In this document: piece after piece, positions 20,290 through 38,511 of the stretch
Layout: every line of letters starts with the position of its first letter
Position numbering within the stretch: position 1 is the stretch's first letter
NCBI GenBank assembly: GCA_964440215.1
Contig: CAYTRB010000001.1
Coordinates: forward strand, 67 to 64,066
Direction of reading: 5' to 3'
Length of the DNA stretch: 64,000 nucleotides
Source of the DNA: an uncultured Methylocapsa sp.
GTDB taxonomy: Bacteria; Pseudomonadota; Alphaproteobacteria; Rhizobiales; Beijerinckiaceae
The notes under the pieces: generated by a model
Seen by the model: only the letters and a program-made list of their open reading frames with translations
The model's database searches: none
What the model was told of the DNA's origin: nothing
Position numbers and translations under genes: made by a program

Positions 20290-20319
20290 GCTGCGCGCCT
20301 TACCTGCGCCTTGCACCTG

Positions 20320-23175: not shown

Positions 23176-23200
23176 ACCGGTCTCCATCGCTCGATGCGGC

Positions 23201-24139: not shown

Positions 24140-24249
24140 GACTGAGGCCGAGCGGGGCCTTGAGTGTGCAAGAAGATTTTCAACCGCCGTGATTCCGGTT
24201 TCCCTAACCCCGCGCATATTTTATTGCCTTTGTCGTGCCAATAGGCTAT

Positions 24250-24259
24250 CTACTAGTAG
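24250..24259. promoter_or_regulatory. perfect 10-bp palindrome in the TetR/MBL divergent region (candidate TetR operator)
   Basis: CTACTAGTAG at 24250-24259 (12 of 14 if extended to ATCTACTAGTAGGT). Lies 42 nt upstream of the TetR GTG start and 111 nt upstream of the MBL hydrolase ATG. Confidence 0.4.
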
Positions 24260-24300
24260 GTTCGTTTCTTTCCGTCAAGAGCCACACGGGTCGCTGACAA

Positions 24301-24876
24301 GTGAACAACGAAACGGGGATAGGCACGCGCGGCCGGTTGCTGGCGGAAGCGGAATTCTTGGTCAGAACACGCGGCTATTCGGGTTTCAGCTATGCAGACC
24401 TCGCCAAAACCGTCGGCATAAGCAAGGCGAGCATTCATCATCATTTTCCGGCGAAGGAAGATCTGGGAGCCGCGCTCATCGACGCATATAAAGAGCGCTA
24501 CGATGTCGCGCTTGAAACCATATGGGAGGAAAGCACATCAGGGGTGGCGCGGATCGCCGCCTATGCAAGGCTTTATCTCGAGGGGCTGAGACAAGACCGG
24601 GGATGCCTGTGCGGCGTGATGGCCTGCGAACGCGACATCTTGCCTCAAGGCCTGCGCGTGGGCATCGCGCGGTTTTTCGAGGAGCATCTCATTTGGTTGC
24701 AAAGTGTCCTTGAAGCTGGCGTCGAGAACGGAACGATTCGGCGAGGGATTGATCACGCCGCGCAGGCAAAGCTTATCCTATCCGCGTTGGAAGGCATGCT
24801 CATGCTGGGACGCCTGTTTGGCGATAAGTCCGGATTCGACACGGCCGTTGACGCGCTTAGCAAAACCTTGCGTTAG
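24301..24876 (+). CDS. TetR/AcrR-family transcriptional regulator
   Basis: N-terminal HTH: GRLLAEAEFLVRTRGYSGFSYADLAKTVGISKASIHHHFPAKEDL. About 190 aa. GTG start. Confidence 0.88.
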   Translation: MNNETGIGTRGRLLAEAEFLVRTRGYSGFSYADLAKTVGISKASIHHHFPAKEDLGAALIDAYKERYDVALETIWEESTSGVARIAAYARLYLEGLRQDRGCLCGVMACERDILPQGLRVGIARFFEEHLIWLQSVLEAGVENGTIRRGIDHAAQAKLILSALEGMLMLGRLFGDKSGFDTAVDALSKTLR

Positions 24877-25019
24877 ACCACGCTCGCTTCAAGAGGAATC
24901 GCTGATGACTTTGGGCGAGCGTTGACGGGAGCGGCTCAAACTGGTCTACATCGGGCGCCTTTGGGCGCCACTGGCCGCGCACGGGCGCAGCTAACCAGGC
25001 ATTCGAGACCGCACCCTAG

Positions 25020-25823
25020 ATGAATTTGCTGACGCCTTTTTCCAACGCCTGGCACTATCGGGAATTGATCCGGGCCGTGGTCCGGCGTGAATTGGCGGTC
25101 CGCTTTCGCGGCACGATCCTCGGCTGGGTTTGGGCGATCTTCGGGCCTCTCGTCATGCTAACCGCCTATACGGTCATATTTTCCCATGCGGTCGGCCTTC
25201 CCGAGTCGGCCAAGGGGGGCAGCTTCGGCAGTTACGCTTTGTCAATCTTTGCGGGGTTGATTGTCTTCAATCTGTTCAGCGAACTCGCCTACCGCTCGCC
25301 TGGCCTTTTGCACGAACATGCGGGCGTCATCAAAAAGTCCATTTTTCCGAGCGAAACCTTAGCCTGGACGGCGACGATCCGCGCAGCCGTCTATGCGGCG
25401 ATAAGCTTAGCTGTTCTCATTGTTTTCGAGCTGGTACTGACGTTCAAGCTACCGCCTGCGAGTTTGCTTTTGCCCTTGGTCATCGTGCCTTTCTTTTTGT
25501 TTCTGCTTGGAACTTGCTGGTTTCTCATGGCGCTTGGATCGTTTACCCGGGATGTCGCACATCTCATGATTTCGATCGTGCCGGTCTTCATGTTCGCGAC
25601 GCCGATCTTTTATTCGATCGACGACGTGCCGCCCAATCTGCGCCTCTATCTGCATCTCAATCCGATCGGAAATTACGTCGAGATGATCCGCGACCTTCTC
25701 TTGTTCAACCGATTCCCGGGTCTCTTTCTCTATGGCGGGACGGTTGTGGTCTCGATCCTCATTTTCTTTTTCGCCTATCGTTTCTTCATGCAATACAAGG
25801 CCGTGTTCGTCGATGTCATCTGA
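25020..25823 (+). CDS. ABC-2-type polysaccharide export permease (Wzm/KpsM/TagG-like)
   Basis: YRELIRAVVRRELAVRFRGTILGWVWAIFGPLVMLTAYTVIF is the ABC-2 polysaccharide permease N-terminal signature, followed by 6 TM segments. Confidence 0.85.
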   Translation: MNLLTPFSNAWHYRELIRAVVRRELAVRFRGTILGWVWAIFGPLVMLTAYTVIFSHAVGLPESAKGGSFGSYALSIFAGLIVFNLFSELAYRSPGLLHEHAGVIKKSIFPSETLAWTATIRAAVYAAISLAVLIVFELVLTFKLPPASLLLPLVIVPFFLFLLGTCWFLMALGSFTRDVAHLMISIVPVFMFATPIFYSIDDVPPNLRLYLHLNPIGNYVEMIRDLLLFNRFPGLFLYGGTVVVSILIFFFAYRFFMQYKAVFVDVI

Positions 25824-26577
25824 TCCCGTCATCAGCTGCGATCGCGTCGGTAAGGCGTTCCAGCTCTATATGCGGCGCAACGATCAGCTCAAACAGGTGA
25901 TCTTCGGGCATTGGAAGCAGTACTACCATCAGCATTGGGTCCTGCGGGACATCACCTTCAAGGTTCGCCGCGGCGAAAGAATCGGAATCATCGGCCGCAA
26001 TGGTGCCGGGAAAACCACCTTGTTGCAGATCCTCTGCGGCATCACCTTGCCGACGCATGGCAATGTGAAAGTCAACGGCCGGGTGGCGCCGATTCTCGCG
26101 CTTGGCGCGGGGTTCGACCATGAGCTGACCGGCCGGGAAAATGCTTTGATCGGCGGCGCCATACTGGGCATGCGGCGCTCCACCGTAGAAGCGAGGCTAA
26201 CCGCGATTGCCGCCTTCGCCGATATCGGCGATTTCTTTTTTCAGCCGGTCAAACTCTATTCGAGCGGCATGGCGGCGCGGCTTGCTTTTGCCGTTTGCGC
26301 CCACGCCGATGCCGATATTTTGATCGTGGACGAGGCTCTCTCGGTTGGTGACGAAGCCTTCGGCGCCAAATGCGATGCCTTTATCAAGGATTTCGCTGTT
26401 CATGGCACGATCCTCGTCGTCTCGCATGATCTCGAAACCCTTGCGTCCATCTGCGACCGTGTTCTCTGGATCGAGGATGGCATGGTGCGCGGCGTGGGTG
26501 CCGCTAGGGAGATCATCTCGCTTTATCGCGACGCGGTTGAAGACAAGCCGGCGTCGGCGTTCGCCGAAATTTTATAA
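25813..26577 (+). CDS. polysaccharide export ABC ATP-binding protein (Wzt/KpsT/TagH-like)
   Basis: Walker A GRNGAGKTTLLQ, GFDHELTGRENA, signature YSSGMAARLAFA, Walker B ILIVDEALSVGD. ATG 25813 overlaps the permease gene end by 11 nt. Confidence 0.88.
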   Translation: MSSDPVISCDRVGKAFQLYMRRNDQLKQVIFGHWKQYYHQHWVLRDITFKVRRGERIGIIGRNGAGKTTLLQILCGITLPTHGNVKVNGRVAPILALGAGFDHELTGRENALIGGAILGMRRSTVEARLTAIAAFADIGDFFFQPVKLYSSGMAARLAFAVCAHADADILIVDEALSVGDEAFGAKCDAFIKDFAVHGTILVVSHDLETLASICDRVLWIEDGMVRGVGAAREIISLYRDAVEDKPASAFAEIL

Positions 26578-26590
26578 AGCCGTACAGATT

Positions 26591-27727
26591 TCAGCGCACT
26601 GGGAGCGCGACCGTGTCCTTGGCCAGCGAAAAATTCGCGTTTTGCCGTTCGATCAGGAAGATGGCAGCGGCAAGCTCCGCGACGATCGCAAGACCGACGA
26701 CAATGATAAGACGTGGGTCCTGTCGCACCAGCGTTTCGGCGGAAACGAGGATTGCGACATGGATCAAAGGAATCGCGAGCAGGGTTACGCTTGTCGCCGC
26801 CCCCGCGCGGCCGCTTGCTGAGGCGAGGTTCAAGACAAGCCCGATGGCGAGAAGCGTATGGGTCAGGGCGAGGAAAGGGATGCCGCACCGTTTGGCTGCT
26901 TCGCTCATCCATTCTCCATAAAGGCGCGGAAATATGACGGGCGATGGTCGTTTCTGAAAGAACTCCATAAACGGCATTTCGAACACACCGCGCCAACTGC
27001 GCTGCGGCAGCCCGCCCGTGCCTTGCATGTTGATCGGCATCGCATACTCATCGAAATGCGCTGTTCTAACGGTCGAGCCATCCGCCGGAAGCGTCTCGAT
27101 CGAACCATTGCTCAAGATCAAGACGACACCGTTGGCGTTTCGGCGGAACTCCGCTTCGGCGGCGGTGATGATCTGCTCCTCGTTCTTTTCGGCGGAGAAT
27201 TGATGGATGAACATGCCAGAGACGAGATCGGCGGAATGCCAGCGGCGGAAATAAATAGTCCGCGTGCCATTGTCGAAACTGTAGAATTGCGCCGGCTCCA
27301 GCATCCGGTGATTCAACGAATTGCGAATGACATAAATCACGTCGTGCATCTCGCCGACATGGGCGGGCGCGAAAATTGAGGAGAGCCAATAACCGGCGCC
27401 GACCGCGACAAGGGCGACGAACGCAGAAGGAAGCGTGATGGCCCAGGCCGAAAGGCGCAGGGAATAAAGAACCGCGATCATGCCATCGGCGGACATTCGC
27501 GCGAATTCGAGCGCAACCGCGACGCCAACCGCCATCGGCAGAGCAATATAGAGAACCGTCGGCAGAGTGCCGAGGACGGCCGGTATGAGCAGCCCGCCAC
27601 GGATGGCGGCCGGTGGAAGATAATGGAAAAGCGAGGTCATAACGACGGGAATGCAAAGCCCTAAAGAGATTATAAGCGCGCCGGTTGCGATCCGTTTCGA
27701 AAGATAGAAGAAAAGCAGACGGGGCAT
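26591..27727 (-). CDS. LptF/LptG-family (YjgP/YjgQ) permease, solitary copy
   Basis: MPRLLFFYLSKRIATGALIISLGLC... Three TM helices, a central soluble domain of about 130 aa, then three TM helices: the LptF/G architecture and N-terminal motif. Confidence 0.7.
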   Translation of the reverse strand: MPRLLFFYLSKRIATGALIISLGLCIPVVMTSLFHYLPPAAIRGGLLIPAVLGTLPTVLYIALPMAVGVAVALEFARMSADGMIAVLYSLRLSAWAITLPSAFVALVAVGAGYWLSSIFAPAHVGEMHDVIYVIRNSLNHRMLEPAQFYSFDNGTRTIYFRRWHSADLVSGMFIHQFSAEKNEEQIITAAEAEFRRNANGVVLILSNGSIETLPADGSTVRTAHFDEYAMPINMQGTGGLPQRSWRGVFEMPFMEFFQKRPSPVIFPRLYGEWMSEAAKRCGIPFLALTHTLLAIGLVLNLASASGRAGAATSVTLLAIPLIHVAILVSAETLVRQDPRLIIVVGLAIVAELAAAIFLIERQNANFSLAKDTVALPVR

Positions 27728-27927: not shown

Positions 27928-28797
27928 TTAAGCTTTCATCCGCGCTGCGGCTTGGTTCGCAAATCGGCGCCAGGCAGCATCAAAGACACGGCGGCTGGGA
28001 AGATTAACTGCACCAGCCCAGTGTGCGAAGTAGATTTTATCGCCATAGACATCGCGCGGCCCTTCGGCGTCGAATGTAACCCCTTCGGCCTTGTAGAAGC
28101 TCTCCCCGGAGGCGCCCGGCAGACATTCCCGTAAAGACGTGATCTTCAAGCCCCTCCGGTGCGCGACGAAATTGGTCACCGGCTGGGCAAACAGCATGCC
28201 GCGCTGGCGCACCGCGTGAAAGATTGCCTCGTCCTTGTCGATGACGTCCTGGAAATCCTTCAGGCTAAGAATCTCATTCGAGGCGACGAAAAACCCATCG
28301 TTGAAGAGCATCACATCGCGGAGAAAATCATAGTTCTCACGCTTTTTATTGTAGACATATTCCTTCGTTGGAGCGGCCACGATGAAATCATTCTTGCCAG
28401 CTTCGAGGCGGCCGAACATCTCTCGAAAATCACGAAACAGGATAATATCGACATCGAGATAGATGACCTCATCGAGCGGTAGCACGAGGCTAAGGAATTT
28501 CCGCAGCCTCCGGCGATAGCCTGGAAACATCGGGTAAAGCCGCTTGGCCAGGGCATCAAGTTCAGCGCTGTCCGGTTCGACAAATTCGATGCCGTATATA
28601 TCGGCGGCCCGGCGCGTCAAGGCGACATTGTCATCGTAAGGGATGAGGTAGAGGGGCGTTGCCGAATTGGTCGCGAGATAGCTCTCGAGAAATGGGAGAA
28701 GCCAATTGATAATCTTATCATTGGCGATGATTGCCATGCCGTAGTTTTTCGATGGAGACGGAAGGTTTTGCATTTCACTCTTGAATTCAACTTGCAT
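27928..28797 (-). CDS. putative GT-A-fold (GT8-like) nucleotide-sugar transferase; family not identified
   Basis: MAIIANDKIINWLLPFLES... (Rossmann-like start), LDEVIYLDVDIILF (DxD-type motif), later FNDGFFV. Lower GC than its neighbours. The start is uncertain (ATG 28797, 28773 or 28737). Confidence 0.5.
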   Translation of the reverse strand: MQVEFKSEMQNLPSPSKNYGMAIIANDKIINWLLPFLESYLATNSATPLYLIPYDDNVALTRRAADIYGIEFVEPDSAELDALAKRLYPMFPGYRRRLRKFLSLVLPLDEVIYLDVDIILFRDFREMFGRLEAGKNDFIVAAPTKEYVYNKKRENYDFLRDVMLFNDGFFVASNEILSLKDFQDVIDKDEAIFHAVRQRGMLFAQPVTNFVAHRRGLKITSLRECLPGASGESFYKAEGVTFDAEGPRDVYGDKIYFAHWAGAVNLPSRRVFDAAWRRFANQAAARMKA

Positions 28798-28972
28798 TAA
28801 GCCTGATCGGCGGCTGGCGGCGGCAGGATCCGTCTGTATTGACGGACTAGCTGTTTCGGGGCGAAACTCCGCTCAACCGATGGGGTGGAGGCGTTTTGCT
28901 CTTCCTGTAGCTTGAGGAGGGCTGCCGGATCAAGCCGGAGCTTTGCCGCGTGAAAATGACCGCGAAGGTCGC

Positions 28973-30283
28973 ATGAATGATGAAATGCGGGCGCGAGAGC
29001 CGTTGGTTCCGCGAATGAACGGGGAGGACCCGCGAGAGGGAAGCGATGCGCCGGTTTCCTTACTGCTCGCGGGAAAAGTCGTGGTGATCGTGCATCCGGC
29101 ATGGCACTCTTGCGGCAGCCATCAGGTTTTCGTCTCGCAGGCGCGGGCCTATCGCAGCCTCGGCGCGAAAGTGGTTAGTCTAGCGATCGCCGATACGCCC
29201 GGCTGCGTCGAGGGATCGCGCGGTTCCAAAGTCTATCTCAATGCGACGGACGACCTTGAAGCCGACACCCGCCTATTCGCGGGCATGCCCTTGCGAAAAA
29301 TTCTGAACGGTGGCTTTCTTCGCGCGGCCAAGCAATGGCTGCACGGTAATGATGCCGCGATGCGGGTTGAGGTCGTGCGGCAGGTGGCGCTTCCGAGCCC
29401 CGGCGCTTTCGCGCCCCGCATCGATCTCATCCACTGCAATCATTTTTTCTGCATGCCGGCCGCGGTCCGCCTGCGCGAGAAGTATGCTTGTCCAATCCTT
29501 CTCGACACACATGATCTGCAAGCGCGCCAATATGCGCTGCGCAATCGCGCACGCTACCGGATTCCTCCCTCCGTCCGCTATGAAGACATGCTCGCTATCG
29601 AGCTCGACGCAATGCGTCCGGCGGCTCTGTTGCTCCATCTCAATGACGAAGAGGCAACGGTTTTCAAACAGCTCGTTCCGGATAAGCATCACGCGTTGCT
29701 CTATCCCACCATCAATGCGATGCCGGCTGGGCTTGGTGGGGGTGATCCCATCATTGTCGCGAGCGCCAATTATCCGAATTTCCTTGGGCTTAGCTGGTTC
29801 TTGCAGGAAGTCTTGCCGCTGGCGCCCGGTGTTCCGGTGCAAATCCTCGGCAATATCGACCGTGAATTTCAATCGCGCGCGCCGGATCTTTATAGGGCGC
29901 ATGCGGCGCACTTCCGTGGCAGGGTCGAGGCGGAGGATCTCCACGCCGCTTATCGTGGCGCCTCGGCTGTACTGCTCCCGGCCACGGCCGGGCACGGGAT
30001 CTCGATCAAAACCATAGAAGCGTTGTCCTGCGGCGCGCCGCTGATCGCGACCCCGCTCGCCTTTCGCGGCCTTGGGATCGCCATGACCGGTCTTCCTCAT
30101 GTGACCGTGACGGAAGTCGGCGCCGCTTTCGCCGCGGCTTTGCGCCGCGCTTATGCCTTTCGCCATTTACCCGGTGCCGACCGCCAGCAGGCGGCAACCC
30201 GCCGCATCTATGAAGAGCGCTTTGCGTTCGCCGCTTATCGCAAAGCGCTGGCGGCTATCGTGGAGCAAGTCGCAAAGACTTGA
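28973..30283 (+). CDS. GT-B-fold glycosyltransferase (GT4-like)
   Basis: C-terminal GT4-type motif AVLLPATAGHGISIKTIEALSCGAPLIATPLAFRGL. ATG 28973 chosen; the ORF-track start 28943 is a TTG. Confidence 0.7.
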   Translation: MNDEMRAREPLVPRMNGEDPREGSDAPVSLLLAGKVVVIVHPAWHSCGSHQVFVSQARAYRSLGAKVVSLAIADTPGCVEGSRGSKVYLNATDDLEADTRLFAGMPLRKILNGGFLRAAKQWLHGNDAAMRVEVVRQVALPSPGAFAPRIDLIHCNHFFCMPAAVRLREKYACPILLDTHDLQARQYALRNRARYRIPPSVRYEDMLAIELDAMRPAALLLHLNDEEATVFKQLVPDKHHALLYPTINAMPAGLGGGDPIIVASANYPNFLGLSWFLQEVLPLAPGVPVQILGNIDREFQSRAPDLYRAHAAHFRGRVEAEDLHAAYRGASAVLLPATAGHGISIKTIEALSCGAPLIATPLAFRGLGIAMTGLPHVTVTEVGAAFAAALRRAYAFRHLPGADRQQAATRRIYEERFAFAAYRKALAAIVEQVAKT

Positions 30284-30311
30284 TCAGGCCATGCTGTACG
30301 CGAGTCTTGCG

Positions 30312-31661
30312 TCAATCCCATTCCAGCACGAGATGCTTCGGAAATTGCGTCCCGCCCGTGTCGATTTGGCCGGCATCCCCAGGGGCACGCCGCAGGCCCG
30401 GCTTTAGGAGCAGCGGTTTCAGGATCGCCGGCAAGACGGCGCGGTTGATGTAGGCGCCGAAACATCCATGCAGCCCGTATCCCCAAAGAATATAATCGCC
30501 CCACGGCCGGTCCGTGCGGAAAGATTCAGGGGCCTCGATGTTCAGGCGATCAAACATGGCAGAAAGATTTGAAGCCAGCACCATGGTATCTTTCGGGATC
30601 TTGCGGGCGCGAAAATGTCCTGCCGCGATCGTGGTGTCCCGCGCCGCGCGCCGGTAGATGAAGGGGTTGATGGGGTTGAAGCGGAGCGCCTCGAAGACAT
30701 GCGCGGCAAGAAGCGTGTCATTGCCGTCATGCGCGGCTTGCTCGGCCGATGCAAACGCCTCGGGACGGTCGAGCAATTGGTCGAGCGCCTGTACGGCTGC
30801 CCTGGAGATCGTGGGGATCGCGCCGATCACGAGCCCGATGAGATTGTTGCGAATCCCGAGATCGTCCATGCCGGGCAGGCCAGCCGCCTGCATGACAAGA
30901 CAGCGTCCGAGCACGTCGTCCTTCGTCTCACCAGAAGCCTTACGCTTGGCGATGGCCGCATCGAGGACGGAGCGAAGGGCGGCCGCCGCGTCGAGCGCTT
31001 CGTGATCCAGCGCCGGATCGCCCGCAAGATCGGCGAAAAGATAGCGGAACATGAGCGTTGCCCACTCCACGAGATCGCTATCGGGCGCGCCGGTGACGCC
31101 GAAATAATCGGTGACGATCGCCGCCGGCACGGGGAGGCTGAGCTCCGGCGGCACATCGATGCGGCCGGCCTTTCCGGCGACAAGCTTTGCCGCCAATTGG
31201 CGTGCGAGCGGCTCGACGATCACGGCGACGTCGTCACGCCGTACCGCAAGACGCATATTGGAGACATCGCGCGTGTAAAGCGCCGTGTCCTGCATCCCAA
31301 GAAAGAAATTCTCGCCTCCCGTGATTGCCCGCATCCGGGGTTCGTAGACAACCTCGAAATCCGCGTTTCGATCGAGCACTTCAATCACATCTTCGTGGCG
31401 CGCGACGAGTACCGTGCCGGTATTTGGATAGGATTTAATGATCTTCTTTGTGAAGACCGGGGAGTTAGGCAGGAAGGCGCGAAGCAGCCGGAAACCGAGC
31501 CTCTGAGTCAACGGGTCCTGAAGCGCGGCCGCGAACTTCTCCTTGAGGCCAGAGCCCTGGGCTGAAAGCACCGCCACGGGTATCTGATACAAGGTAGCGA
31601 GACCATCGGTGATGACGCGCAGGCGCACACCGGCAACAGTGACGAAAGTCGGTACTCGCAT
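30312..31661 (-). CDS. cytochrome P450
   Basis: Heme-thiolate loop WGYGLHGCFGAYIN (FxxGxxxCxG type) and ExxR (EALRFNP). The I-helix reads LIGLVIGAIPTISRA, so it lacks the usual acidic residue before Thr. GGGAGGAA SD 6 nt upstream of the ATG. Confidence 0.88.
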   Translation of the reverse strand: MRVPTFVTVAGVRLRVITDGLATLYQIPVAVLSAQGSGLKEKFAAALQDPLTQRLGFRLLRAFLPNSPVFTKKIIKSYPNTGTVLVARHEDVIEVLDRNADFEVVYEPRMRAITGGENFFLGMQDTALYTRDVSNMRLAVRRDDVAVIVEPLARQLAAKLVAGKAGRIDVPPELSLPVPAAIVTDYFGVTGAPDSDLVEWATLMFRYLFADLAGDPALDHEALDAAAALRSVLDAAIAKRKASGETKDDVLGRCLVMQAAGLPGMDDLGIRNNLIGLVIGAIPTISRAAVQALDQLLDRPEAFASAEQAAHDGNDTLLAAHVFEALRFNPINPFIYRRAARDTTIAAGHFRARKIPKDTMVLASNLSAMFDRLNIEAPESFRTDRPWGDYILWGYGLHGCFGAYINRAVLPAILKPLLLKPGLRRAPGDAGQIDTGGTQFPKHLVLEWD

Positions 31662-31682
31662 CGTTCATTCCTCCCAGTCGCT

Positions 31683-33317
31683 TTACGTGGGGTCGACCAC
31701 GCCCATGCCGATCATGCGCAAGGCGGTCATGCTCGGCACGAAGAAATATTCGCCGCCGCGAGTCTCGACGAATTGCGGAAGGCCTTCGACGATAAACGGA
31801 GGATGGCCGGATGAGGGATCGGCAGGGATCACGAATTTGGCCTTGGGTCCGTTTTTGCCACCAGGCGTTCCATCCGAATGGTTGCCGACAATCGGGCAGG
31901 TGTCGCTGCCGGCATGCGAATCAAGCCCATAGTTGATCCATTGCTGTTGCACGAATTCGAACTGCCGGAACAGGCTCGCGCAGACAACGAGCATCACGAT
32001 GCCGTGCTCCTCCGAGTCCGGCGCCCCATTTGACGAATCGCCATAGGGCAAGCCGCGCCGGAGGATACGGCGGCGATTGTTCAACACCGATCCGTCGTCG
32101 CCGGTCGGGTCCATCATGTCCCGCGTATTGACCCGCCGCACATGCGCGGTGAGCGGACATTTGGCGCCTTCTTTATCGTCATTGAAGGAGAAGTTCGCAA
32201 GAGCCGCTTCGCGGGCCATTTGGTCAGACCCCGGATGGTCGATATTGAATTGCTTCCACGCTGCCACGTCCTTTGCGAGCGAAAGAGGCACCCCATCGGA
32301 CCAGCGGCCCGCCATCTTCGCCATCAGCGTTTCGCGCGCATCATCGAGGTCTGCGATGCCGGAAACCTTGGCATAATCTTTCGCTGTCTCGTGAATAAAG
32401 CTCCGGAACGCGGCGACATTCTCATGCAGCTTGCGATAGGCGATGAAAGTGCCGTTGCGGCTGAAATCGAGCGGCATGGCGGCGCCGGGGATCTCCTGCG
32501 CCTCGTCGGGATAGCCGAGCAGGAATTCGCCAGTCGCGAGCGGCCGCCAATTGCCCTTGCCGTCAAGGGCCCCGTTGCCTTCCGCGACCGCCTGCTCGTA
32601 ATCATTTGGATACTGACCTTCAAAAACCGGATCACCGATGGCGTCGGTGAAGCCGAAATGCTCCTTCGGAAGGGGCGTGACGGTACCATCGGAATTGTGT
32701 TCCAGGATCGCCGAAAGCTCTTGAAAATCCTGTTTCGGATGGCCCGGAAGATTGTGGCCGGTAAGCAGCCGCACGCCACCGCCGGTTTCTTGGCGAAGAG
32801 TCTCGATGTCTCTGGTTTGCGCGTCGAGCGCCGCGACGGCCGATCCGTCTGAGTTCATTTTCGCATTAAGCGTGACAAGAAGATGGACCGTATTCTCATT
32901 GGGTCCGTAGCCATCTCCGCTCCTGGTCCACACTTCGTCCCAGCGATTTTTCCAATCTTCGCGGAAATCATCGCCGAGCATGGGTGCGCGATTGATCATC
33001 CCGTCGATGAATTCGTCCGGCATCCCGCGCAGCGTGCGAACCGGAATGCCGAGCGCGAGCAGACCATACCAAGTGAAGGCAAGATTAACCGTGACATCGG
33101 GACGCGGCACCTCAATCTTCCCGGTCGGGATGTCAGTTGTCGACGACTTCCAGCGCAAAGCGGTGGTGATCATCGGCAATAATCCGGTCACGAATTTGCG
33201 CCCCGAATCAGGATTGTCGATGTGAAAGAGTATGAAGCGGCCCTTGGGAAATCCCAGCTTTCCATAGGGCGTGAGAATATTGCCTTGAATATCGGCGAGA
33301 TCGAGTTCGACGGCCAT
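31683..33317 (-). CDS. DyP-type heme peroxidase, long form (544 aa)
   Basis: N-terminal LADIQGNIL; GFTDAIGDP (GxxDG motif variant with Ala); proximal-His segment LTAHVRRVNTRD; RRILRRGLPYG; C-terminal LFRQFEFVQQQWINYG. No signal or Tat motif. Confidence 0.85.
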   Translation of the reverse strand: MAVELDLADIQGNILTPYGKLGFPKGRFILFHIDNPDSGRKFVTGLLPMITTALRWKSSTTDIPTGKIEVPRPDVTVNLAFTWYGLLALGIPVRTLRGMPDEFIDGMINRAPMLGDDFREDWKNRWDEVWTRSGDGYGPNENTVHLLVTLNAKMNSDGSAVAALDAQTRDIETLRQETGGGVRLLTGHNLPGHPKQDFQELSAILEHNSDGTVTPLPKEHFGFTDAIGDPVFEGQYPNDYEQAVAEGNGALDGKGNWRPLATGEFLLGYPDEAQEIPGAAMPLDFSRNGTFIAYRKLHENVAAFRSFIHETAKDYAKVSGIADLDDARETLMAKMAGRWSDGVPLSLAKDVAAWKQFNIDHPGSDQMAREAALANFSFNDDKEGAKCPLTAHVRRVNTRDMMDPTGDDGSVLNNRRRILRRGLPYGDSSNGAPDSEEHGIVMLVVCASLFRQFEFVQQQWINYGLDSHAGSDTCPIVGNHSDGTPGGKNGPKAKFVIPADPSSGHPPFIVEGLPQFVETRGGEYFFVPSMTALRMIGMGVVDPT

Positions 33318-33326
33318 GGTGCGCCT

Positions 33327-34289
33327 CTAGATGCCGATGATGCCCGGCTGTTGCGTGGGTCCGATGAGATTCTCGGGTTCGTTTGCGGCGACGAAGATCC
33401 CGAACGCGTCGTGGAGTTGATGTGCCGACTCCGGGTCTGCCGCCAGCAGCTGGTTGTCAATCGCGAAGCGGGTGAATGTTCGCTGCAGATGAAGGGCCTT
33501 GAGAACGGCCGGGAGATTCGAGTCCGGCGCCGCCGGAAACGGTTTGCCGCCCGCCGCTAAGAGGCTCGAATAGGCGAACCATAGTCCGGCAGCGAGCACC
33601 GCTGCGCCGAGCAGCATCACGATGAAGCCCGCCTTCCCCGACATAAAACAAAAGACGATAAGACCCAGTAAAAACACAACGGCGCCCGCACCGGCGGGAA
33701 TGAGATTTTTGTCGGCAGGCCACACTGGAAGCAGCGGCAAAGGACTATCGACGTAATAATCATTAAAAGACATTGTCGTTTCGATTTGGCAGCGCGCGAT
33801 ATATTTCGCGAAGGACGCCGCATCGCTGACATTCGTATCGAATCCAACGCAATACGTGAAAATACGCTGCAACTCATCTTGCATCGTATCCCAAAGGGTG
33901 GCGAGATAGGAATCCCGCTCGGTATCGGCAGCACTCGCCGCATCGAAGTCCACACCGAAGAAGAGAAACGGGCAGGTCAGATGATCCTGCGGCTGCGCGA
34001 CGATCGGGTTGATTTTCCGGATCACCGTCCATAGGACATTGCATTGTTCACGCCCATTGTAATTCGTATCGTCGATGATCACGAAACGGGCAAAATGGTT
34101 GCGCGTATTGCGTGCGAAGGGGCTTTGGCCGCCGCCACAGGCGGGCGTCTGCGCGGCTGTTGGCAGCATGGCGAGTTGCTTGCGTAAGGCATGGACAGGC
34201 GATGTGACCGCCGTCCCATCTTTTATCGGCTCGGTCCGGACTGGCACGAGAACGGTCAAGAAATAATGTCCGCCGTCGAATGTCGGCAT
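33327..34289 (-). CDS. uncharacterised 320-aa protein with two C-proximal TM helices
   Basis: ATG 34289 is preceded by GGGGGGAG; the ORF-track start 34304 is a TTG. Reads MPTFDGGHYFLTVLVPV...NHFARFVIIDD...PFLFFGVDFDAASA...YLATLW. TM helices: AGAGAVVFLLGLIVFCFMSG and GFIVMLLGAAVLAAGLWFAYSSLL. I cannot assign a family. Confidence 0.7.
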   Translation of the reverse strand: MPTFDGGHYFLTVLVPVRTEPIKDGTAVTSPVHALRKQLAMLPTAAQTPACGGGQSPFARNTRNHFARFVIIDDTNYNGREQCNVLWTVIRKINPIVAQPQDHLTCPFLFFGVDFDAASAADTERDSYLATLWDTMQDELQRIFTYCVGFDTNVSDAASFAKYIARCQIETTMSFNDYYVDSPLPLLPVWPADKNLIPAGAGAVVFLLGLIVFCFMSGKAGFIVMLLGAAVLAAGLWFAYSSLLAAGGKPFPAAPDSNLPAVLKALHLQRTFTRFAIDNQLLAADPESAHQLHDAFGIFVAANEPENLIGPTQQPGIIGI

Positions 34290-34322
34290 GTAGGCTCCCC
34301 CCAAAGATGCGGCAGGCCAAAC

Positions 34323-34988
34323 TCAGATCAGCGTCGCGGCCGCCTTTTGCTGATGTGCGACGTAATCCGCGCGGTTAGCGTCAGCGTTTTTCGTGTCATT
34401 GCTGGCGACCGGTGCATAGCCTTGATAGCCAAGGTCGTTCTGCACCTTGCAGAGCTCGGCGATATAGGCTTTCTGGAAATCCGCGGCCGCCAAATCCGCG
34501 TGCTTTTCGACGAGACTTAGAACCGCGCGCCGCACCCGTAGCGCCGCCTTGATGTCGCTCACCGCCGCGCCAGGCGTCGCATTGAAATAATAATCCGTGG
34601 TGAGCTGGTTCGCCCTTATGTAGTCTTTGAAGGGCGTGCTCGGGATCGAGTGCGGGAATTTCGTGCTCGAGATCCAATACAGGTCAACCCCGCTTGGAAT
34701 GGCGTCCGAAAAAGCGTCGAGATATTGATCCCAGGTTCCATTGAAGTTGCTGGAGAACAGCATGTAATCGTTCTGCAGATTCTGTTTTCCCTGGCCAAGA
34801 TCGGGCCATTGATTCCTCTTGACGATCGCCCAGCGGCCAAAATGGATGAACGTTAGGCCGAGCAAGCCGGCAAGGGTGGACGGGAAGGCGCGCGTCGCCA
34901 TATACGCCAAGCGGTTAAGCCACGTCAGCCATGGCGGCATCGGCGTGATGACGTTCATGACGTAAGCCTTGCCGGCGACGTTGGACAT
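34323..34988 (-). CDS. uncharacterised 221-aa protein, tandem paralog A
   Basis: ATG 34988 is preceded by GGGAGGGGGG. It aligns without gaps to paralog B (35328-35993): 159/221 identical by hand count. Motifs IHFGRWAIVKRNQWP and LFSSNFNGTWDQYLDAFS. I recognise no family. Confidence 0.75.
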   Translation of the reverse strand: MSNVAGKAYVMNVITPMPPWLTWLNRLAYMATRAFPSTLAGLLGLTFIHFGRWAIVKRNQWPDLGQGKQNLQNDYMLFSSNFNGTWDQYLDAFSDAIPSGVDLYWISSTKFPHSIPSTPFKDYIRANQLTTDYYFNATPGAAVSDIKAALRVRRAVLSLVEKHADLAAADFQKAYIAELCKVQNDLGYQGYAPVASNDTKNADANRADYVAHQQKAAATLI

Positions 34989-35113
34989 TCCCCCCTCCCA
35001 GTGCCGCGAGGGGATGACGCAAAACGCCATTCCCCAAAGCCCGCTATCCGAGGGCTCCGTAATTCTTGATTTTCAATCCCACGGAAAAGCGCGGGAACCC
35101 CTATTTGGAAACT

Positions 35114-35143
35114 ATTATGCCTCCTTTTTGGAGGCAGAGGCAA
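35114..35143 (-). promoter_or_regulatory. candidate sigma70-type promoter of paralog A (duplicated with the gene)
   Basis: The minus strand reads TTGCCT (35143-35138), 18 nt, CATAAT (35119-35114). The same spacing and the same -10 occur upstream of paralog B. The predicted 5' UTR is about 118 nt. Confidence 0.45.
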
Positions 35144-35327
35144 GGCTTTGATGGCGAGCTCGGCGGCCCAGAACTATAAGCGTCAGTGAGGATCCAGCGT
35201 GAGTTTTGGCGCCAGATTGTCCGGGTCTTGAGTGCGTGCTCATGTCTCCTCCAATGCAGCGCCTTTGAAGGGGGCCGGTGAGGAAGGAACAAAGATCGGC
35301 CGAACTGGGGGGCGGGGCTGGCCAAAT

Positions 35328-35993
35328 TCAGATGAGCGTCGCGGCCGACTTCTGCTGATTGTGGACATAGTCGGCGCGGTGAATATCGGCGTTTTTGGTG
35401 TCGTTGGAGGCGACCGGCGCATACCCTTGGTAGCCAAGACTGTTCTGCACCGCGCGGAGCGCCGCGGCATAGGCTCCTTGGAAATCCTCTGGCGTGAGCG
35501 TCTGATGTTGCGCGGCGAGCGCGAGAATGGTGCGCCGAACGATCAATGCCGCCTTGATGTCACGTTGGGCGGCACCGGGCGTTGCATTATAATAGTAATC
35601 CGTGTCAATCTGATTCGCCCGGATATAATTCTTAAACGGCGTGATCGGAATTGAGTGTGGATATCGCGTGCTCGAAAACCAGAACAGATCGAGTCCGCTT
35701 GGAAGTCCGTCTGAGAAGGCGTCGATATATTGGTCCCAGGTGCCGTTGAAATTGCTATAAAATAGCGTGTAATCGTTTTGCAGCGTCTGCTTGCCCTGAC
35801 CGAGGTTGGGCCATTGATTGCGCTTGATGATCGCCCATCGCGCAAAATGAATGATCGATAGGCCGAGCAGCGCACTCAAGAAAGATGGAAGCGCGCGTGA
35901 CGCCATGAAAATCGCCCGCTGGACCCAGGTCATCCACGGGTGCATTGGTGTCATCGTATTCATGCCGTAAGCTTTGCCGGCTATGTTGGACAT
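35328..35993 (-). CDS. uncharacterised 221-aa protein, tandem paralog B
   Basis: ATG 35993 is preceded by GGGGAGGGGG. Same length and colinear with paralog A (about 72% identity). The C-terminal 36 aa are 31/36 identical. Confidence 0.75.
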   Translation of the reverse strand: MSNIAGKAYGMNTMTPMHPWMTWVQRAIFMASRALPSFLSALLGLSIIHFARWAIIKRNQWPNLGQGKQTLQNDYTLFYSNFNGTWDQYIDAFSDGLPSGLDLFWFSSTRYPHSIPITPFKNYIRANQIDTDYYYNATPGAAQRDIKAALIVRRTILALAAQHQTLTPEDFQGAYAAALRAVQNSLGYQGYAPVASNDTKNADIHRADYVHNQQKSAATLI

Positions 35994-36075
35994 GTCCCCC
36001 TCCCCGAGGCCCGCTTAAGGCAATATTTTTATTTTTGCCTCCCAGGCGAATATTCAAATCGTGATATATTTTTTT

Positions 36076-36105
36076 ATTATGCCTCTTTTATCTCGCCATT
36101 TGCAA
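36076..36105 (-). promoter_or_regulatory. candidate sigma70-type promoter of paralog B
   Basis: The minus strand reads TTGCAA (36105-36100), 18 nt, CATAAT (36081-36076) inside an AT-rich tract (36020-36100). The predicted 5' UTR is about 75 nt. Confidence 0.5.
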
Positions 36106-36421
36106 GGCTTGGCTATGGCTATCCTCACGGCCTTGTCATGGCATCGCATGCTCATGGTGCCGCGCGGGATTGGCTCTGCGCGCGCATCCGTGCCTTGAAC
36201 ATATTGTGAAGAATTTGCTCGCCCTTTTCAATTCAAACAAGCCCCAACTCCATGATTTTTGGCGATCGCTTCCTGATCGCCGGATTCCCTGTGAAGGGCC
36301 GGCGGACACATGCGCGCGGAACGCGGCGATTTGAGGAGTCGGTCGCAACCTAAGATCGCTAGCAACCAATTATTATCGGATATGAGGCTAATTTGGCGCG
36401 AACATAACGGGGCCTAGCACT

Positions 36422-36946
36422 ATGACGTCAACCGCAAAGACGCCGACAGCAATGACGCAACAAGCCTGCCCGGACCTGCCGCGGCCCGCAACTTTTGCCG
36501 ATTCGGACGGAGGCCTCACCGGCGCCTATCTCAATCAGTTCAACGAAATGGTGAAGCTGATCGAACAATTGCCGGACACGCCCGAATTGATTGGCGATAT
36601 ATTAAACTGGCATCCGACGACCTATCAGGATTATTTCAACGCCTCGGCCATGCCCGGACGCGTCTCCGCAGCAGATGTCTATGCCTCGCTGAACCGCTGC
36701 GTGCGGCAAAATTTTGAAGGCGTTGTCGACGACTTGGACCGCAAGGCGCTCGGCGCGGTGGCGGTCATCAGACGCCATTACAAAACCCATGGCGAAGCCC
36801 GCCCAGACATCATGATGGAGATTTGCGCGCGCGCCGGCACGCATCTCCGCGAAGTGCTCGGCAAGGCGAATGATCTTGTCAGCCATGTTCCAGCGACAGC
36901 GGGGAATTTTGCGCAACGCCGGAAGCTACGGGTCTCGCAAGCTTGA
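36422..36946 (+). CDS. hypothetical protein (174 aa)
   Basis: An ORF with protein-like composition (LNQFNEMVKLIEQLPDTPELIGDILNWHPTTYQDYF...). No motif I can name. Confidence 0.5.
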   Translation: MTSTAKTPTAMTQQACPDLPRPATFADSDGGLTGAYLNQFNEMVKLIEQLPDTPELIGDILNWHPTTYQDYFNASAMPGRVSAADVYASLNRCVRQNFEGVVDDLDRKALGAVAVIRRHYKTHGEARPDIMMEICARAGTHLREVLGKANDLVSHVPATAGNFAQRRKLRVSQA

Positions 36947-37188
36947 GCGCAAACAAATCGAGACAGTTTTGCGGCGCAATCAAAAGAGCATGTTAAGACC
37001 AAGGCCGGCACCGGTTCCATAGAGTGGGCCTGCGGCACGCGTAAGGGCGGCACTGGCCCAACGCCGCTGTTTAGCTTAAGACTGTTCGCGTACCTTTGCC
37101 TTTCCTGCTGCACGCGATTAAACCCGGGACGAACATTGGGATTAGAGCATAGTCCCCGAGCCCTCCCTCCCATGGTGTCTGTCTGATC

Positions 37189-38511
37189 ATGCGCCTATCC
37201 CGTTATTTTTTGCCGATTCTCCGCGAGACGCCAAAAGAGGCCGAGATCGTCTCGCACCGCTTGATGCTGCGCGCCGGCATGATTCGCCAGGAGGCGGCCG
37301 GAATCTACGCCTGGCTTCCCCTCGGCCTTCGCGTTTTGCAAAAGGTGGGACAGATCGTGCGCGAGGAAATGGATCGTGCGGGCGCGATCGAACTGTTGAT
37401 GCCGACCCTTCAGCTTGCGGATTTGTGGCGGGAAACGGGCCGCTACGAGGCCTATGGTCCGGAAATGCTGCGAATCAAGGACCGCCACGAACGTGAGCTG
37501 CTTTATGGTCCGACCAATGAGGACATGATCACCGGGATCTTTCGGGCCTATGTGCGAAGCTACCGGGATTTGCCCAAAATCCTCTACCACATTCAGTGGA
37601 AATTTCGCGACGAGCAAAGGCCGCGTTTCGGCGTCATGCGCGGCCGCGAATTTTTGATGAAGGATGCGTATTCCTTCGATGTCGACGAGGCTGCCGCGCA
37701 GCTGTCCTACAACAAAATGTTCGTCGCCTATTTACGGATTTTTTCCCGGATGGGATTGAAGGCGATCCCGATGCGTGCCGAGACCGGGCCGATCGGCGGC
37801 GACTTGAGCCATGAATTCATCATTTTGGCGGAAACCGGTGAGTCGGCCGTATTTTGCCACGCCGATGTCTTGGATTTGCCCATTCCGCCTGAGAATACCG
37901 ATTATGATGGCGATCTCTCGCCGGTCATCCGCCAATGGACGAAGTTTTACGCGGCGACCGGGGATGTCCATGAGCAAGCAAGGTTCGAGCGCGAGACGCA
38001 AGAAGAAAAGCGAATTCACACGCGCGGCATCGAGGTTGGCCAGGTGTTTTATTTCGGCGAAAAATATTCTAAACCGATGCAGGCCTTGATCACCGGTCCG
38101 GATGGCGTGGAGCGGCCTTTCCAGGGCGGCTCATACGGCGTTGGCGTGTCGCGTCTCGTCGGCGCGCTGATCGAAGCCGGTCATGATGAAAATGGAATTA
38201 TATGGCCTGAGCCTGTCGCGCCTTTTAAGGCCGGGATCGCGAATTTGAAAGTTGGCGATGGCGCCACGGATGCCGCCTGCGAGAAGATCTATGGCGCGCT
38301 CGAAGGGGCAGGTGTGGAGGTGCTCTATGACGACACCGACGATCGGCCCGGCGCCAAATTCGCCAAGCTCGATCTGATCGGGCTGCCTTATCAGATCATC
38401 GTCGGGCCAAAGGGCTTGGCTTCGGGCACTGTGGAACTCAAGACAAGGGCGACCGGCGCCCGCGAAAACCTTGATGCCGCGGCGGCGATCGCGCGGCTTG
38501 CTGGCTCATGA
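37189..38511 (+). CDS. proS: proline--tRNA ligase (short, alphaproteobacterial type)
   Basis: [34 protein letters not shown]...; class II motifs [25 protein letters not shown] and [15 protein letters not shown]; C-terminal anticodon-binding domain. Confidence 0.95.

Follow-up and report, generated by a model that had tools for sequence, protein, structure and literature searches.

A conserved gene cassette joins two unannotated proteins to a DyP-type heme peroxidase and, often, a cytochrome P450

Two heme enzymes and three proteins of no named family are encoded side by side in the window (the whole 64,000-nucleotide stretch of DNA analysed here), which raises the question of what the unnamed proteins do there. 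The physiological substrates of DyP-type peroxidases (DyPs) are unknown (PMC10820274), and a conserved cassette of such partners, here called A and B, is a concrete lead on the natural role of these enzymes. An earlier note described five co-directional, tightly spaced genes at positions 30312-36105, and the ORF listing contains all five on the minus strand. The features of the locus are as follows:

35328..35993, minus strand: A1, 221 aa, upstream, extra copy; unannotated family (ORF listing)
34323..34988, minus strand: A2, 221 aa, paralog of A1, in the ancestral position and adjoining B upstream
33327..34289, minus strand: B, 320 aa, paralog of A (from profile comparison)
33549..33716, minus strand: predicted transmembrane hairpin of B, aa ~192-247 (AlphaFold helices and Kyte-Doolittle)
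31683..33317, minus strand: DyP, 544 aa, class C/V heme peroxidase (Pfam and nearest solved structure)
30312..31661, minus strand: P450, 449 aa, divergent cytochrome P450 (PF00067)
36076..36105, minus strand: promoter-like element 5' of A1, TTGCAA, 18 nt, CATAAT (consensus scan)
35114..35143, minus strand: promoter-like element 5' of A2, TTGCCT, 18 nt, CATAAT (consensus scan and duplication)
34311..36110, minus strand: tandem duplication, two copies of 1005 nt (repeat families D1, D2 and D4; 73-78% identity)

Gene organization and duplication of A

The gaps of 9 nt between B and DyP and 21 nt between DyP and P450 agree with those reported earlier, but the 18 nt reported between A2 and B applies only if B starts at the TTG at 34304. 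This start was rejected, as homologs all begin MPTFDGGHYF, and the A2-B gap is 33 nt. A1 and A2 are separated by 339 nt. The mechanical ORF of A2 is longer, reaching 35030; the ATG start that gives 221 aa is backed by homologs and by a GGGGGG Shine-Dalgarno sequence.

The products of A1 and A2 are 72% identical. A repeat search showed that the A gene was duplicated in tandem together with its upstream promoter-like region, and the two upstream regions align with each other. A1 was nearer to orthologs than A2 in 116/117 comparisons. No second copy of A was found elsewhere in 160 scanned loci, and a single locus (L016) repeats the whole cassette. The extra A copy arose by duplication at this locus and is not part of the conserved unit; what had been put forward as a five-gene system is, as a conserved entity, three genes (A, B, and DyP) with a frequent P450. 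The same promoter-like motif occurs ~90-150 nt upstream of A in four other loci (L004, L011, L019, and L021), and, judging from sequence, the element 5' of A2 is the likely start of an A2-B-DyP-P450 transcript.

Relationship and predicted fold of A and B

Searches of Pfam, NCBIfam, PADLOC, and the PDB sequences returned no match for A or B, in agreement with the earlier view that the three unknowns belong to no named family. Every one of the 2558 homologs of A1 (1126 clusters at 50% identity) and all 765 homologs of B are named "hypothetical". The motif logic that the unknowns had been said to share reflects real homology: in an hhalign comparison, A and B were matched with a probability of 92% (E 5e-7), and their C-terminal helices align as well. 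At the level of sequence profiles, this shows them to be paralogs within a family that had not been annotated before. A conserved His and Arg lie in beta2 of both proteins, with an H-x-A-R strand in each half, and B has an invariant Cys (C147). Among the components, median identity is highest for A (70%), followed by P450 (59%), DyP (57%), and B (46%), and the most conserved part of A is its folded domain rather than its tail.

A is predicted to consist of a single ferredoxin-like alpha+beta domain with C-terminal helices, and B of an N-terminal ferredoxin-like domain (~aa 1-180) and C-terminal helices preceded by a two-helix transmembrane hairpin (AlphaFold). Modelled with AlphaFold, a natural A-B fusion contains two ferredoxin-like domains (pLDDT 83, pTM 0.84), and for such fusions the prediction is that A and B together build one tandem (pseudo-dimeric) barrel of the ferredoxin-like alpha+beta type. 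The best Foldseek matches, namely sulfur oxygenase reductase, WhiE-ORFI (ABM/SchA-like), FN1347 monooxygenase, and a CT0912 ferredoxin-like repeat, had probabilities of 0.9-1.0 but E values of 0.01-0.3 and low TM-scores; weak matches of this kind point to a fold class only, and to no active site. Structures of IsdG, HemQ, and Cld were not among the top 50 Foldseek matches, and a sequence relationship of A/B to DyP was undetectable (hhalign probability 0.1%). The idea that the unknowns are divergent alpha+beta-barrel modules beside the peroxidase is supported by the hhalign, AlphaFold, and Foldseek results, but the fold likeness to DyP or chlorite dismutase that came with it must be dropped, the nearest structures being sulfur oxygenase reductase and ABM-type tandem barrels.

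The hairpin of B is formed by AlphaFold helices 192-215 and 218-247, and the Kyte-Doolittle 19-residue maximum of 2.5 lies at residue 196. It is found in 74/75 proteobacterial B proteins versus 1/70 divergent B' proteins, i.e., it is lineage-specific; the 320-aa protein is predicted to be membrane-anchored here, as had been claimed, but anchoring is not a general trait. In this genome, we infer, the A:B-DyP complex would be tethered at the cytoplasmic face of the inner membrane through the B hairpin. Most lineages lack the anchor, so a membrane lipid cannot be the substrate throughout the family.

Conservation of the cassette

A neighbourhood not conserved in related genomes had been named beforehand as one finding that would refute the proposed system. 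The result does not refute it: in two independent scans A, B, and DyP were collinear in 133/134 assessable loci overall, far more than chance would give. DyP lies directly 3' of A-B in all 76 assessable loci of a genome set of 80 species that spans Alpha- and Betaproteobacteria, Geobacteraceae, and Mycobacteriaceae, and in 57/58 assessable loci of a divergent metagenome set, whose sole exception (L113) keeps a truncated DyP N-terminus. MAGs of Xanthobacteraceae, an Acidobacteriota megaplasmid, and further contigs show the same gene order. A P450 gene directly follows DyP in 52/73 genome loci and 17/36 metagenome loci; because it is absent from roughly 30-50% of cassettes, the P450 is inessential to the core function. 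Neighbourhood scans of both locus sets revealed no other conserved neighbours. What is conserved comprises A, B, and a class C/V DyP, in many cases with a P450; this widespread, self-contained module is annotated nowhere by name and appears not to have been described. That the module is real and that A and B are functionally linked to DyP is, in our estimate, very likely.

Natural fusions combine the components in several ways: A-B (P0241, P0406, P0412, and P0432), A-B'-DyP (P0280 and P0289), B'-DyP (L150), and DyP-P450 (L140 and L155). In 6/150 representatives, A-B' is fused to a mini-catalase whose nearest structure is 3e4w, a type linked to organic hydroperoxides and not to aromatics.

The module is mostly found in soil and peat bacteria. 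A patatin-like gene lies immediately 3' of the cassette in L084, a glyoxal-oxidase-like gene and a mini-catalase adjoin it in L141, and in Granulicella Fur-katG is 4 kb away; TetR and SARP/BTAD-type regulators are found close to the cassette in actinobacterial-type loci. The earlier statement that the operon has no regulator is correct for the window locus but not everywhere, since in some lineages an ECF sigma factor gene is directly upstream (L085 and L088). The patatin, glyoxal-oxidase, and sigma neighbours occur at one to a few loci each, and together with Fur-katG they give weak hints of a lipid/peroxide setting.

The heme enzymes

The identification of the two enzymes as a DyP-type peroxidase and a cytochrome P450 is upheld by Pfam scores above the cut-offs (DyP_N, 42.4 bits, and Dyp_perox_C, 20.3 bits, for DyP; PF00067, 34.7 bits, for P450). 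DyP has no signal peptide, and its nearest solved structure is DrDyP from Deinococcus radiodurans (8re2/8re3, E 2e-38). Its catalytic residues are intact, and 72 orthologs conserve D225 (motif GFTDA), H392, and R420/R421. The P450 is divergent (best PDB match E 2e-13 only). Its Cys ligand is intact; the loop around Cys400, GYGLHGCFG, is conserved, as is E324-x-x-R327. The I-helix has the sequence G280-A-I-P-T284 and lacks an acidic residue; across 52 orthologs its P-T pair shows 95% or higher conservation. The cassette contains no redox partner gene for the P450. A non-canonical I-helix alone does not prove peroxide-shunt chemistry.

Possible function of the cassette

The link between A/B and DyP is solid, and the mechanism of the module is speculative. 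The best explanation overall, to which we give a probability of about 40%, is that the locus is one lineage's version of the widespread module, with the hydroperoxide mechanism outlined below as its most likely, though speculative, chemistry. A and B would form a heterodimer, a dedicated partner of the heme peroxidase, and a physical A:B heterodimer or complex with DyP is probable. Our best guess is that this heterodimer serves the heme enzymes by supplying or presenting what they act on, either an organic hydroperoxide or a hydrophobic substrate. The barrel would bind a hydrophobic small molecule and, much as cofactor-independent ABM-type oxygenases or lipoxygenase partners do, make or present an organic hydroperoxide of lipid or quinone type; DyP (or, in other lineages, the mini-catalase) would reduce or rearrange it. 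The P450, with neither a redox partner gene nor the usual acidic I-helix residue, would use that hydroperoxide or substrate as well, working peroxide-dependently or as an isomerase, by analogy with the two-heme pathways of LOX-AOS and Psi-factor oxygenase (PpoA). Organic-hydroperoxide or oxylipin-like chemistry as such is a tentative proposal, made by analogy.

Alternatively, DyP and P450 could scavenge H2O2 or organic peroxides in peroxide-stress defence, with A:B as a regulatory or activating subunit that, for example, relieves a low-spin heme state like that of DrDyP or senses peroxide through the invariant Cys of B. DrDyP is inactive at neutral/physiological pH, its inactive state being a six-coordinate low-spin heme and its activation trigger unknown (PMC10820274), and Sugano et al. 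proposed H2O2 scavenging for P450-DyP fusions (PMC9719856). The upstream ECF sigma genes, the Fur-katG near the Granulicella cassette, C147, and the fusion of A-B' to two different peroxide-handling heme folds also fit. However, dedicated catalases and peroxiredoxins exist in these genomes, a P450 is an odd peroxide scavenger, the cassette has no conserved regulator, and the conservation of A, the highest of all components, speaks for catalysis or ligand binding more than for regulation alone, which makes stress defence rather improbable.

Oxidation of aromatics or quinones is unlikely as well. Here, A:B would resemble ABM-type anthrone/quinol oxygenases and act on a polycyclic aromatic or a quinol, for instance a phenolic from soil, an anthraquinone of plant or fungal origin, or a quinol of the respiratory chain, which DyP and P450 would further oxidise or hydroxylate. 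Anthraquinone dye oxidation defines DyPs (PMC10820274), and the ABM/SchA-like polyketide proteins and putative monooxygenase among the structural neighbours, the soil and peat habitat, and the TetR and SARP/BTAD-type regulators are in line with such a role. Yet A and B are not members of the ABM Pfam family, and no conserved ring-cleavage, transport, or PKS genes lie nearby. The mini-catalase partner, too, belongs with organic hydroperoxides and not with aromatics.

The dimeric alpha+beta barrel superfamily binds heme repeatedly, and every partner domain (DyP, mini-catalase, and P450) is a heme b protein. A:B, of the IsdG/HemQ-like fold class, could therefore deliver, store, or degrade heme for the two enzymes or, via the conserved His of the H-x-A-R strand, act as a b-type cytochrome redox partner; the conserved His and Arg in beta2 would suit either role. 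We find this doubtful, given the absence of IsdG, HemQ, and Cld from the top Foldseek matches and of profile similarity between A/B and DyP; moreover, chaperones are seldom fused 1:1 with clients, and other heme enzymes in the same genomes work without A:B.

Peroxide-driven cross-linking or oxidation of Tyr-rich tails by DyP and P450, proposed earlier, would make A a substrate rather than a partner. Biaryl cross-linking of peptides by P450 enzymes is an established reaction, and the tail motif G-x-Y-A-P-V-A-S-x-D is kept in proteobacterial cassettes. The proposal is nevertheless unsupported and very improbable, because the tail has two Tyr only, is confined to this one branch and missing from the wider A family, and is a low-pLDDT linker between domains in natural A-B fusions; in addition, conservation of A peaks in the folded domain, and many cassettes lack the P450. 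Finally, chance adjacency of unrelated genes, for which the synteny and fusion data gave no support, is already refuted by the collinearity in otherwise unrelated contexts and by several gene fusions.

Comparison with known systems

The fold class of A and B, in which two ferredoxin-like beta-alpha-beta-beta-alpha-beta units pack into a barrel, is also that of the ABM/DABB superfamily (WhiE-ORFI/SchA-like, ActVA-Orf6, YgiN, and IsdG) and of sulfur oxygenase reductase. A and B match none of these in sequence or profile, and they differ from them in extra helices and in the transmembrane hairpin of B; the likeness is one of fold class only, and no signature residues of those families were identified.

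DrDyP, the closest solved relative of the window DyP, is likewise of class C/V and cytoplasmic, and like the window DyP it has no assigned physiological substrate (PMC10820274). A proximal His, a distal Asp, and a distal Arg are present in both enzymes, and the GXXDG fingerprint is altered in each (GXXDM in DrDyP, GXXDA in the window DyP). The window enzyme is ~100 aa longer due to insertions.

In EfeUOB iron uptake, encapsulin-DyP, and Sco-ECuC-DtpA, the role of the DyP is set by co-transcribed partners (PMC9719856). These are, however, class A or B enzymes whose partners are transporters, shells, and copper chaperones, none of them with A/B-type proteins, and EfeUOB, encapsulin, or Sco-ECuC partner genes were found neither at the window locus nor among the conserved neighbours.

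Two-enzyme oxylipin fusions, such as the coral and cyanobacterial lipoxygenase-catalase-related AOS and PpoA, the Psi-factor oxygenase of fungi (heme dioxygenase-P450), pair a module that forms a hydroperoxide, as a fusion or as a neighbour, with a catalase-related or P450 heme enzyme that needs no redox partner. The cassette resembles them in that A-B' is fused to a catalase-related domain (nearest 3e4w) or to DyP, followed by a partner-less P450; it differs in having no lipoxygenase or animal-heme-peroxidase domain, and hydroperoxide formation by A:B is purely hypothetical, so that the analogy is one of architecture only.

P450-TM-DyP fusions are known as DyP subclass V4 and are experimentally unexplored; joint action of the two heme domains on one compound or on H2O2 has been proposed, and an analogy with Psi-factor oxygenase has been drawn (Sugano and co-workers 2022, PMC9719856). 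In the window, DyP and P450 are encoded by separate genes in that order, the transmembrane segment belongs to B and does not lie between the heme domains, and the invariant partners A and B are undescribed in PMC9719856. What the two systems share is the linkage of a class V DyP to a cytochrome P450 and to a membrane segment, and the cassette family itself includes DyP-P450 fusions.

Organization of the cassette in the window

All five minus-strand genes described in the earlier note were recovered by ORF listing. They encode two copies of a protein that we call A (A1 and A2), a larger protein B, a DyP-type peroxidase, and a cytochrome P450.

Genes of the cassette in the window
35328-35993, minus strand: A1, ORF of 221 aa
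34323-34988, minus strand: A2, ORF of 221 aa, start set by homologs and a Shine-Dalgarno sequence
33327-34289, minus strand: B, ORF of 320 aa, homologs all begin MPTFDGGHYF
31683-33317, minus strand: DyP, ORF of 544 aa
30312-31661, minus strand: P450, ORF of 449 aa

From A1 to P450, the genes are separated by 339, 33, 9, and 21 nt. A longer mechanical ORF for A2, reaching 35030, was rejected; the ATG at 34988 was taken as the start because homologs begin with MSN(I/V)AGKAY and a GGGGGG Shine-Dalgarno sequence precedes this codon. A1 and A2 are 72% identical and arose by a 1005-nt tandem duplication, in which a promoter-like element, TTGC(A/C)N-18 nt-CATAAT, was copied along with the gene. Four related genomes likewise have this element, ca. 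90-150 nt upstream of A; a search for the motif across the loci found it four times where expected and twice, by chance, within a glycosyltransferase gene. Nearly all homologs (116 of 117) are nearer to A1 than to A2, and no extra A copy was found in the other 160 scanned loci (the best 80 from each of two scans described below). Two whole cassettes were present in one scanned locus only, L016 from a Methylocella MAG, where A-B-DyP is followed in tandem by A-B-DyP-P450 (883-9126), while in the window the A gene alone is duplicated. An Rfam search of window positions 30000-37200 returned no RNA element. No convincing terminator was found inside the operon; three consensus matches, fewer than expected from shuffled sequence, all lie in coding regions.

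The A-B-DyP order is conserved

The neighborhood of the cassette was surveyed in two scans. In the first, one genome per species was used; at least 578 loci were confirmed, and the best 80 were kept. Among these, A, B, and DyP were collinear in 76 of 76 assessable loci, and P450 came next in 52 of 73. Carriers include Methylocella, Methylosinus, Methylocapsa, Azospirillum, Falsiroseomonas, Rhodobacteraceae, and Mesorhizobium, as well as Sphingomonadaceae, Burkholderia, Geobacteraceae, and one Mycobacteriaceae MAG. Tractable carriers are Methylosinus sporium, Methylocapsa aurea, Salipiger bermudensis HTCC2601, and Burkholderia guangdongensis. The second scan, of metagenomes, was seeded with soluble fusions of A to B', a shorter counterpart of B, and yielded at least 464 loci, of which 80 with 30-50% identity were kept. 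Here, the order A (~198 aa), B' (~207 aa), DyP (~460 aa) was found in 57 of 58 assessable loci, the lone exception still having a truncated DyP N-terminus, and P450 was next in 17 of 36. Of the cassette components, A is the most conserved: median identity to the window proteins was 70% for A, 59% for P450, 57% for DyP, and 46% for B. The collinear locus counts refute chance adjacency, and the gene neighborhood that the earlier note proposed to survey is conserved as far as A, B, and DyP are concerned. The five-gene unit of that note has to be redrawn, since the core that emerges from the locus scans is A, B, and a class C/V DyP, frequently with P450.

All-versus-all ORF clustering of both locus sets revealed no other conserved neighbors (regulators, transporters, or redox partners). 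In Beijerinckiaceae, cassettes share the location seen in the window, in synteny between a glycosyltransferase gene and proS; other lineages have them in different surroundings. Individual loci contain additional genes. In L084, P450 is followed by genes for an 895-aa patatin-like protein and a DUF4139 protein (11998-16876), and in L085 (11772-14774) and L088 (11107-14202) an ECF sigma factor gene precedes the cassette and a gene for a ~1000-aa AAA/BTAD-type regulator follows it. Metagenome locus L141 has mini-catalase-like and glyoxal/galactose-oxidase-like genes directly after A-B'-DyP (7890-10745); enzymes of the latter type produce H2O2. A plasmid search gave Skermanella matches at 27.6% identity. 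On Granulicella tundricola plasmid pACIX901 (L168, 7001-9630), A and B' (WP_013572739/WP_013572740, a naturally soluble pair) are "hypothetical" in RefSeq and adjoin a "dyp-type peroxidase"; genes for a Fur-family regulator and katG lie ca. 4 kb downstream of this cassette (13379-14624), with a TonB-dependent receptor gene in between. Such neighbors (ECF sigma, patatin, glyoxal oxidase, TetR, BTAD, Fur-katG) are sporadic and provide weak hints.

Several other ORFs surround the cassette in the window. The interval between proS and A1 contains a 174-aa ORF without a Pfam match (36422-36946, plus strand), oriented divergently from A1. In 11 related loci of the Beijerinckiaceae type, a homolog is found at this position; the product could be a regulator specific to the lineage, or else a conserved hypothetical protein unrelated to the cassette. 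On the other side, a 289-aa ORF without a Pfam match (27928-28797, minus strand) adjoins the GT4 glycosyltransferase gene (28943-30283) and is kept in 12 related loci. Positions 17883-27727 code for a DUF2252 protein, a cytochrome b561-DUF3611 fusion, a SoxY-SoxZ fusion protein, a metallo-beta-lactamase-fold protein, an ABC-2 permease/ATPase pair, and an LptF/G-like permease; the pairing of a SoxYZ fusion with a b561-DUF3611 membrane protein is unusual.

A and B form a family of predicted alpha+beta-barrel proteins

In a collection clustered at 90% identity, A has 2558 homologs (1126 representative clusters at 50% identity) and B has 765, all of them named "hypothetical protein" in their sources. 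The earlier note could place neither protein in a named family, and the searches bear this out: A and B had no Pfam or NCBIfam match at E-values up to 1 and no match to PDB sequences or profiles, nor were any PADLOC models of anti-phage defense systems matched by A, B, DyP, P450, an A-B' fusion, or an nSTAND1-A fusion.

A and B are paralogs. In hhalign comparisons, A residues 1-131 aligned with B residues 1-171 (probability 92%, E 5e-7), and the C-terminal helices aligned as well (A 137-183 with B 253-304). Moreover, a single A query matches two stretches of natural fusions of ~390 aa, the second half of which is B-like. B is thus an A-like protein with an inserted two-helix transmembrane hairpin (aa ~192-247). 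Invariant residues are H49, R52, W53, S80, N81, N83, W86, and Y89 in A and H8, H65, R68, and C147 in B. The hairpin is present in 74 of 75 proteobacterial B proteins but in only 1 of 70 B' proteins of the divergent metagenome set, which are soluble and ca. 207 aa long.

An AlphaFold model of B alone had a pLDDT of 71, and a fold search with it gave no usable match. A natural A-B fusion from a Geobacteraceae MAG, P0412, was modeled instead, using a mixed alignment; identity to the window proteins is 67% for the A part of P0412 and 48% for the B part. The model (pLDDT 83, pTM 0.84) consists of two beta-alpha-beta-beta-alpha-beta ferredoxin-like domains, the hairpin, and a C-terminal helical bundle. 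The top PDB matches in a Foldseek search were sulfur oxygenase reductase, WhiE-ORFI (ABM/SchA-like), the putative monooxygenase FN1347, and CT0912, a ferredoxin-like repeat protein. The probabilities of these matches were 0.9-1.0, yet E-values were 0.01-0.3 and TM-scores 0.2-0.4. The support that the model gives is limited to the predicted fold class, a tandem or dimeric alpha+beta barrel; by sequence, neither A nor B belongs to the Pfam ABM, Dabb, EthD, IsdG, and like families. Derivation of A and B from DyP was rejected, since the A or B family, compared by hhalign with the cassette DyP family, gave a probability of 0.1%, and DyP or Cld structures were absent from the top 50 Foldseek matches of P0412. 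The structural proposal in the earlier note is largely right as regards predicted alpha+beta-barrel modules; homology of A and B to the CDE superfamily (chlorite dismutase/DyP/EfeB) was not detected. In A1, a strongly hydrophobic helix pair (residues 19-47) lies between beta1 and beta2, with a Kyte-Doolittle maximum of 1.77 at residue 38 and a weak, spurious Heliorhodopsin match. It may contact membranes or lipids with its surface, or cover a pocket as a lid.

The heme enzymes

The product of 31683-33317 is a predicted DyP-type peroxidase, as judged by family profiles and catalytic residues. It scored 42.4 bits against Pfam DyP_N (cut-off 27.5) and 20.3 bits against Dyp_perox_C (cut-off 20). 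Its score against the NCBIfam superfamily model TIGR01413, 83.1, is below the cut-off of 100.5, and it is thus a divergent member. The nearest solved structure is that of DrDyP (DR_A0145; 8re2/8re3, E 2e-38), a class C/V enzyme from Deinococcus radiodurans. Residues H392 (proximal), D225 (distal), and R420/R421 (distal) align with DrDyP H324, D189, and R348, and are kept across 72 orthologs. In the GXXDG motif, which here reads G-F-T-D-A, the final Gly is replaced. The enzyme is predicted to be cytoplasmic, because neither a signal peptide nor a Tat motif can be read in it. DrDyP, its nearest solved relative, is inactive at neutral pH (PMC10820274).

The P450 is divergent as well, with 34.7 bits against PF00067 (cut-off 22.8, E 1e-8) and a best PDB match at E 2e-13. 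The Cys-ligand loop (FxxGxxxCxG in the family, W-G-Y-G-L-H-G-C400-F-G here) and the ExxR motif (E324-A-L-R327) are kept in 52 orthologs. The acid-alcohol pair of the P450 I-helix serves O2 activation with a redox partner. In the register given by sequence alignment, the canonical pair (A/G-G-x-D/E-T) is not present in the cassette P450; the corresponding stretch is G280-A-I-P-T284, in which the 52 orthologs have no acidic residue and P-T is conserved to at least 95%. No ferredoxin or reductase gene was found in the cassette in any of the 160 scanned loci.

Natural fusions

Besides A-B fusions, we found A-B'-DyP fusions of 937 and 964 aa, as well as B'-DyP and DyP-P450 fusions. In 6 of the 150 best representatives, A-B' is joined to a catalase-related domain (mini-catalase). 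The structure nearest to this domain is 3e4w, a catalase-related protein of 33 kDa from M. avium paratuberculosis, which reacts with organic hydroperoxides. In a single case, the 719-aa protein P0297, an nSTAND1 NTPase (PF20703, E 1e-34) carries a C-terminal A domain (residues 518-714). This fusion suggests that an A domain can serve as a sensor/effector module in a STAND-type switch.

Both DyP and P450 are known kinds of enzymes, and the link between them has been noticed before: P450-TM-DyP fusions (subclass V4) were recorded, called unexplored, and suggested to carry out a joint reaction like that of Psi-factor oxygenase (PMC9719856). That paper does not mention A or B, and no prior description of the cassette was found in the literature searched. 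In the libraries and literature searched, both the cassette as a whole and its obligate partners A and B thus appear to be undescribed.

Discussion

The module shown by this analysis is real, widespread, and self-contained: it ties two paralogous alpha+beta-barrel proteins of an unannotated family to a class C/V DyP and, in many cases, to a P450 as well. From the natural fusions and the P0412 model, we infer that A and B form a heterodimer, which would work physically with the heme enzyme. In the genome of the window, the complex would be anchored on the cytoplasmic side of the membrane.

The reading we favor, with a probability of about 0.3, would have A:B generate or present an organic hydroperoxide or a hydrophobic substrate, which the heme enzymes would then reduce or rearrange. 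It is favored because the heme folds found in fusions with A-B', those of DyP and mini-catalase, are unrelated to each other and both use peroxide, and because the P450 has neither a redox-partner gene nor an acidic I-helix residue. Other roles for A:B can be considered. Defense against peroxide stress, with A:B as an activator or sensor, is unlikely; the same two peroxide-using fusion partners speak for it, and against it the all-versus-all clustering revealed no conserved regulator. Oxidation of aromatic compounds or quinones in the manner of ABM oxygenases is less likely again: WhiE-ORFI is among the top structural matches, and by sequence A and B lie outside the ABM family. Heme delivery or redox partnering by A:B is still less probable. 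Finally, the cross-linking of Tyr-rich tails advanced in the earlier note is highly improbable and needs correcting, for the "GYAPVASND" tail of A is a disordered linker in the P0412 model.

The association is very strong and bears on a question of the DyP field, namely what most of these peroxidases, above all the cytoplasmic ones of class C/V, act on in nature and which role they serve. In practically all genomes examined, A and B go together with this subclass of DyP, at times as fusions with it, and they offer a direct experimental handle. With more than 1100 clusters at 50% identity, the A/B family is large, and Pfam, NCBIfam, and the PDB do not contain it. Its definition would allow thousands of proteins now called "hypothetical" to be annotated in soil, peat, marine, and methanotroph genomes; a new pathway of heme-dependent oxidation, of use in biocatalysis, may also come to light. 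If the hydroperoxide pathway is true, it would be the first physiological role for cytoplasmic C-type DyPs.

In its broadest and quite tentative form, our proposal is that A/B constitute a new family whose members form a heterodimer, as an obligate subunit of class C/V DyPs (and, elsewhere, of mini-catalases). Together with a redox-partner-independent P450, they would make up a new bacterial pathway that both produces and transforms an organic, lipid-derived hydroperoxide. The supply of a hydroperoxide or substrate by A:B to a heme enzyme resembles, in its logic, LOX-AOS and PpoA. The cassette may be a bacterial counterpart of LOX-AOS/Psi-factor oxylipin chemistry, built from entirely different folds.
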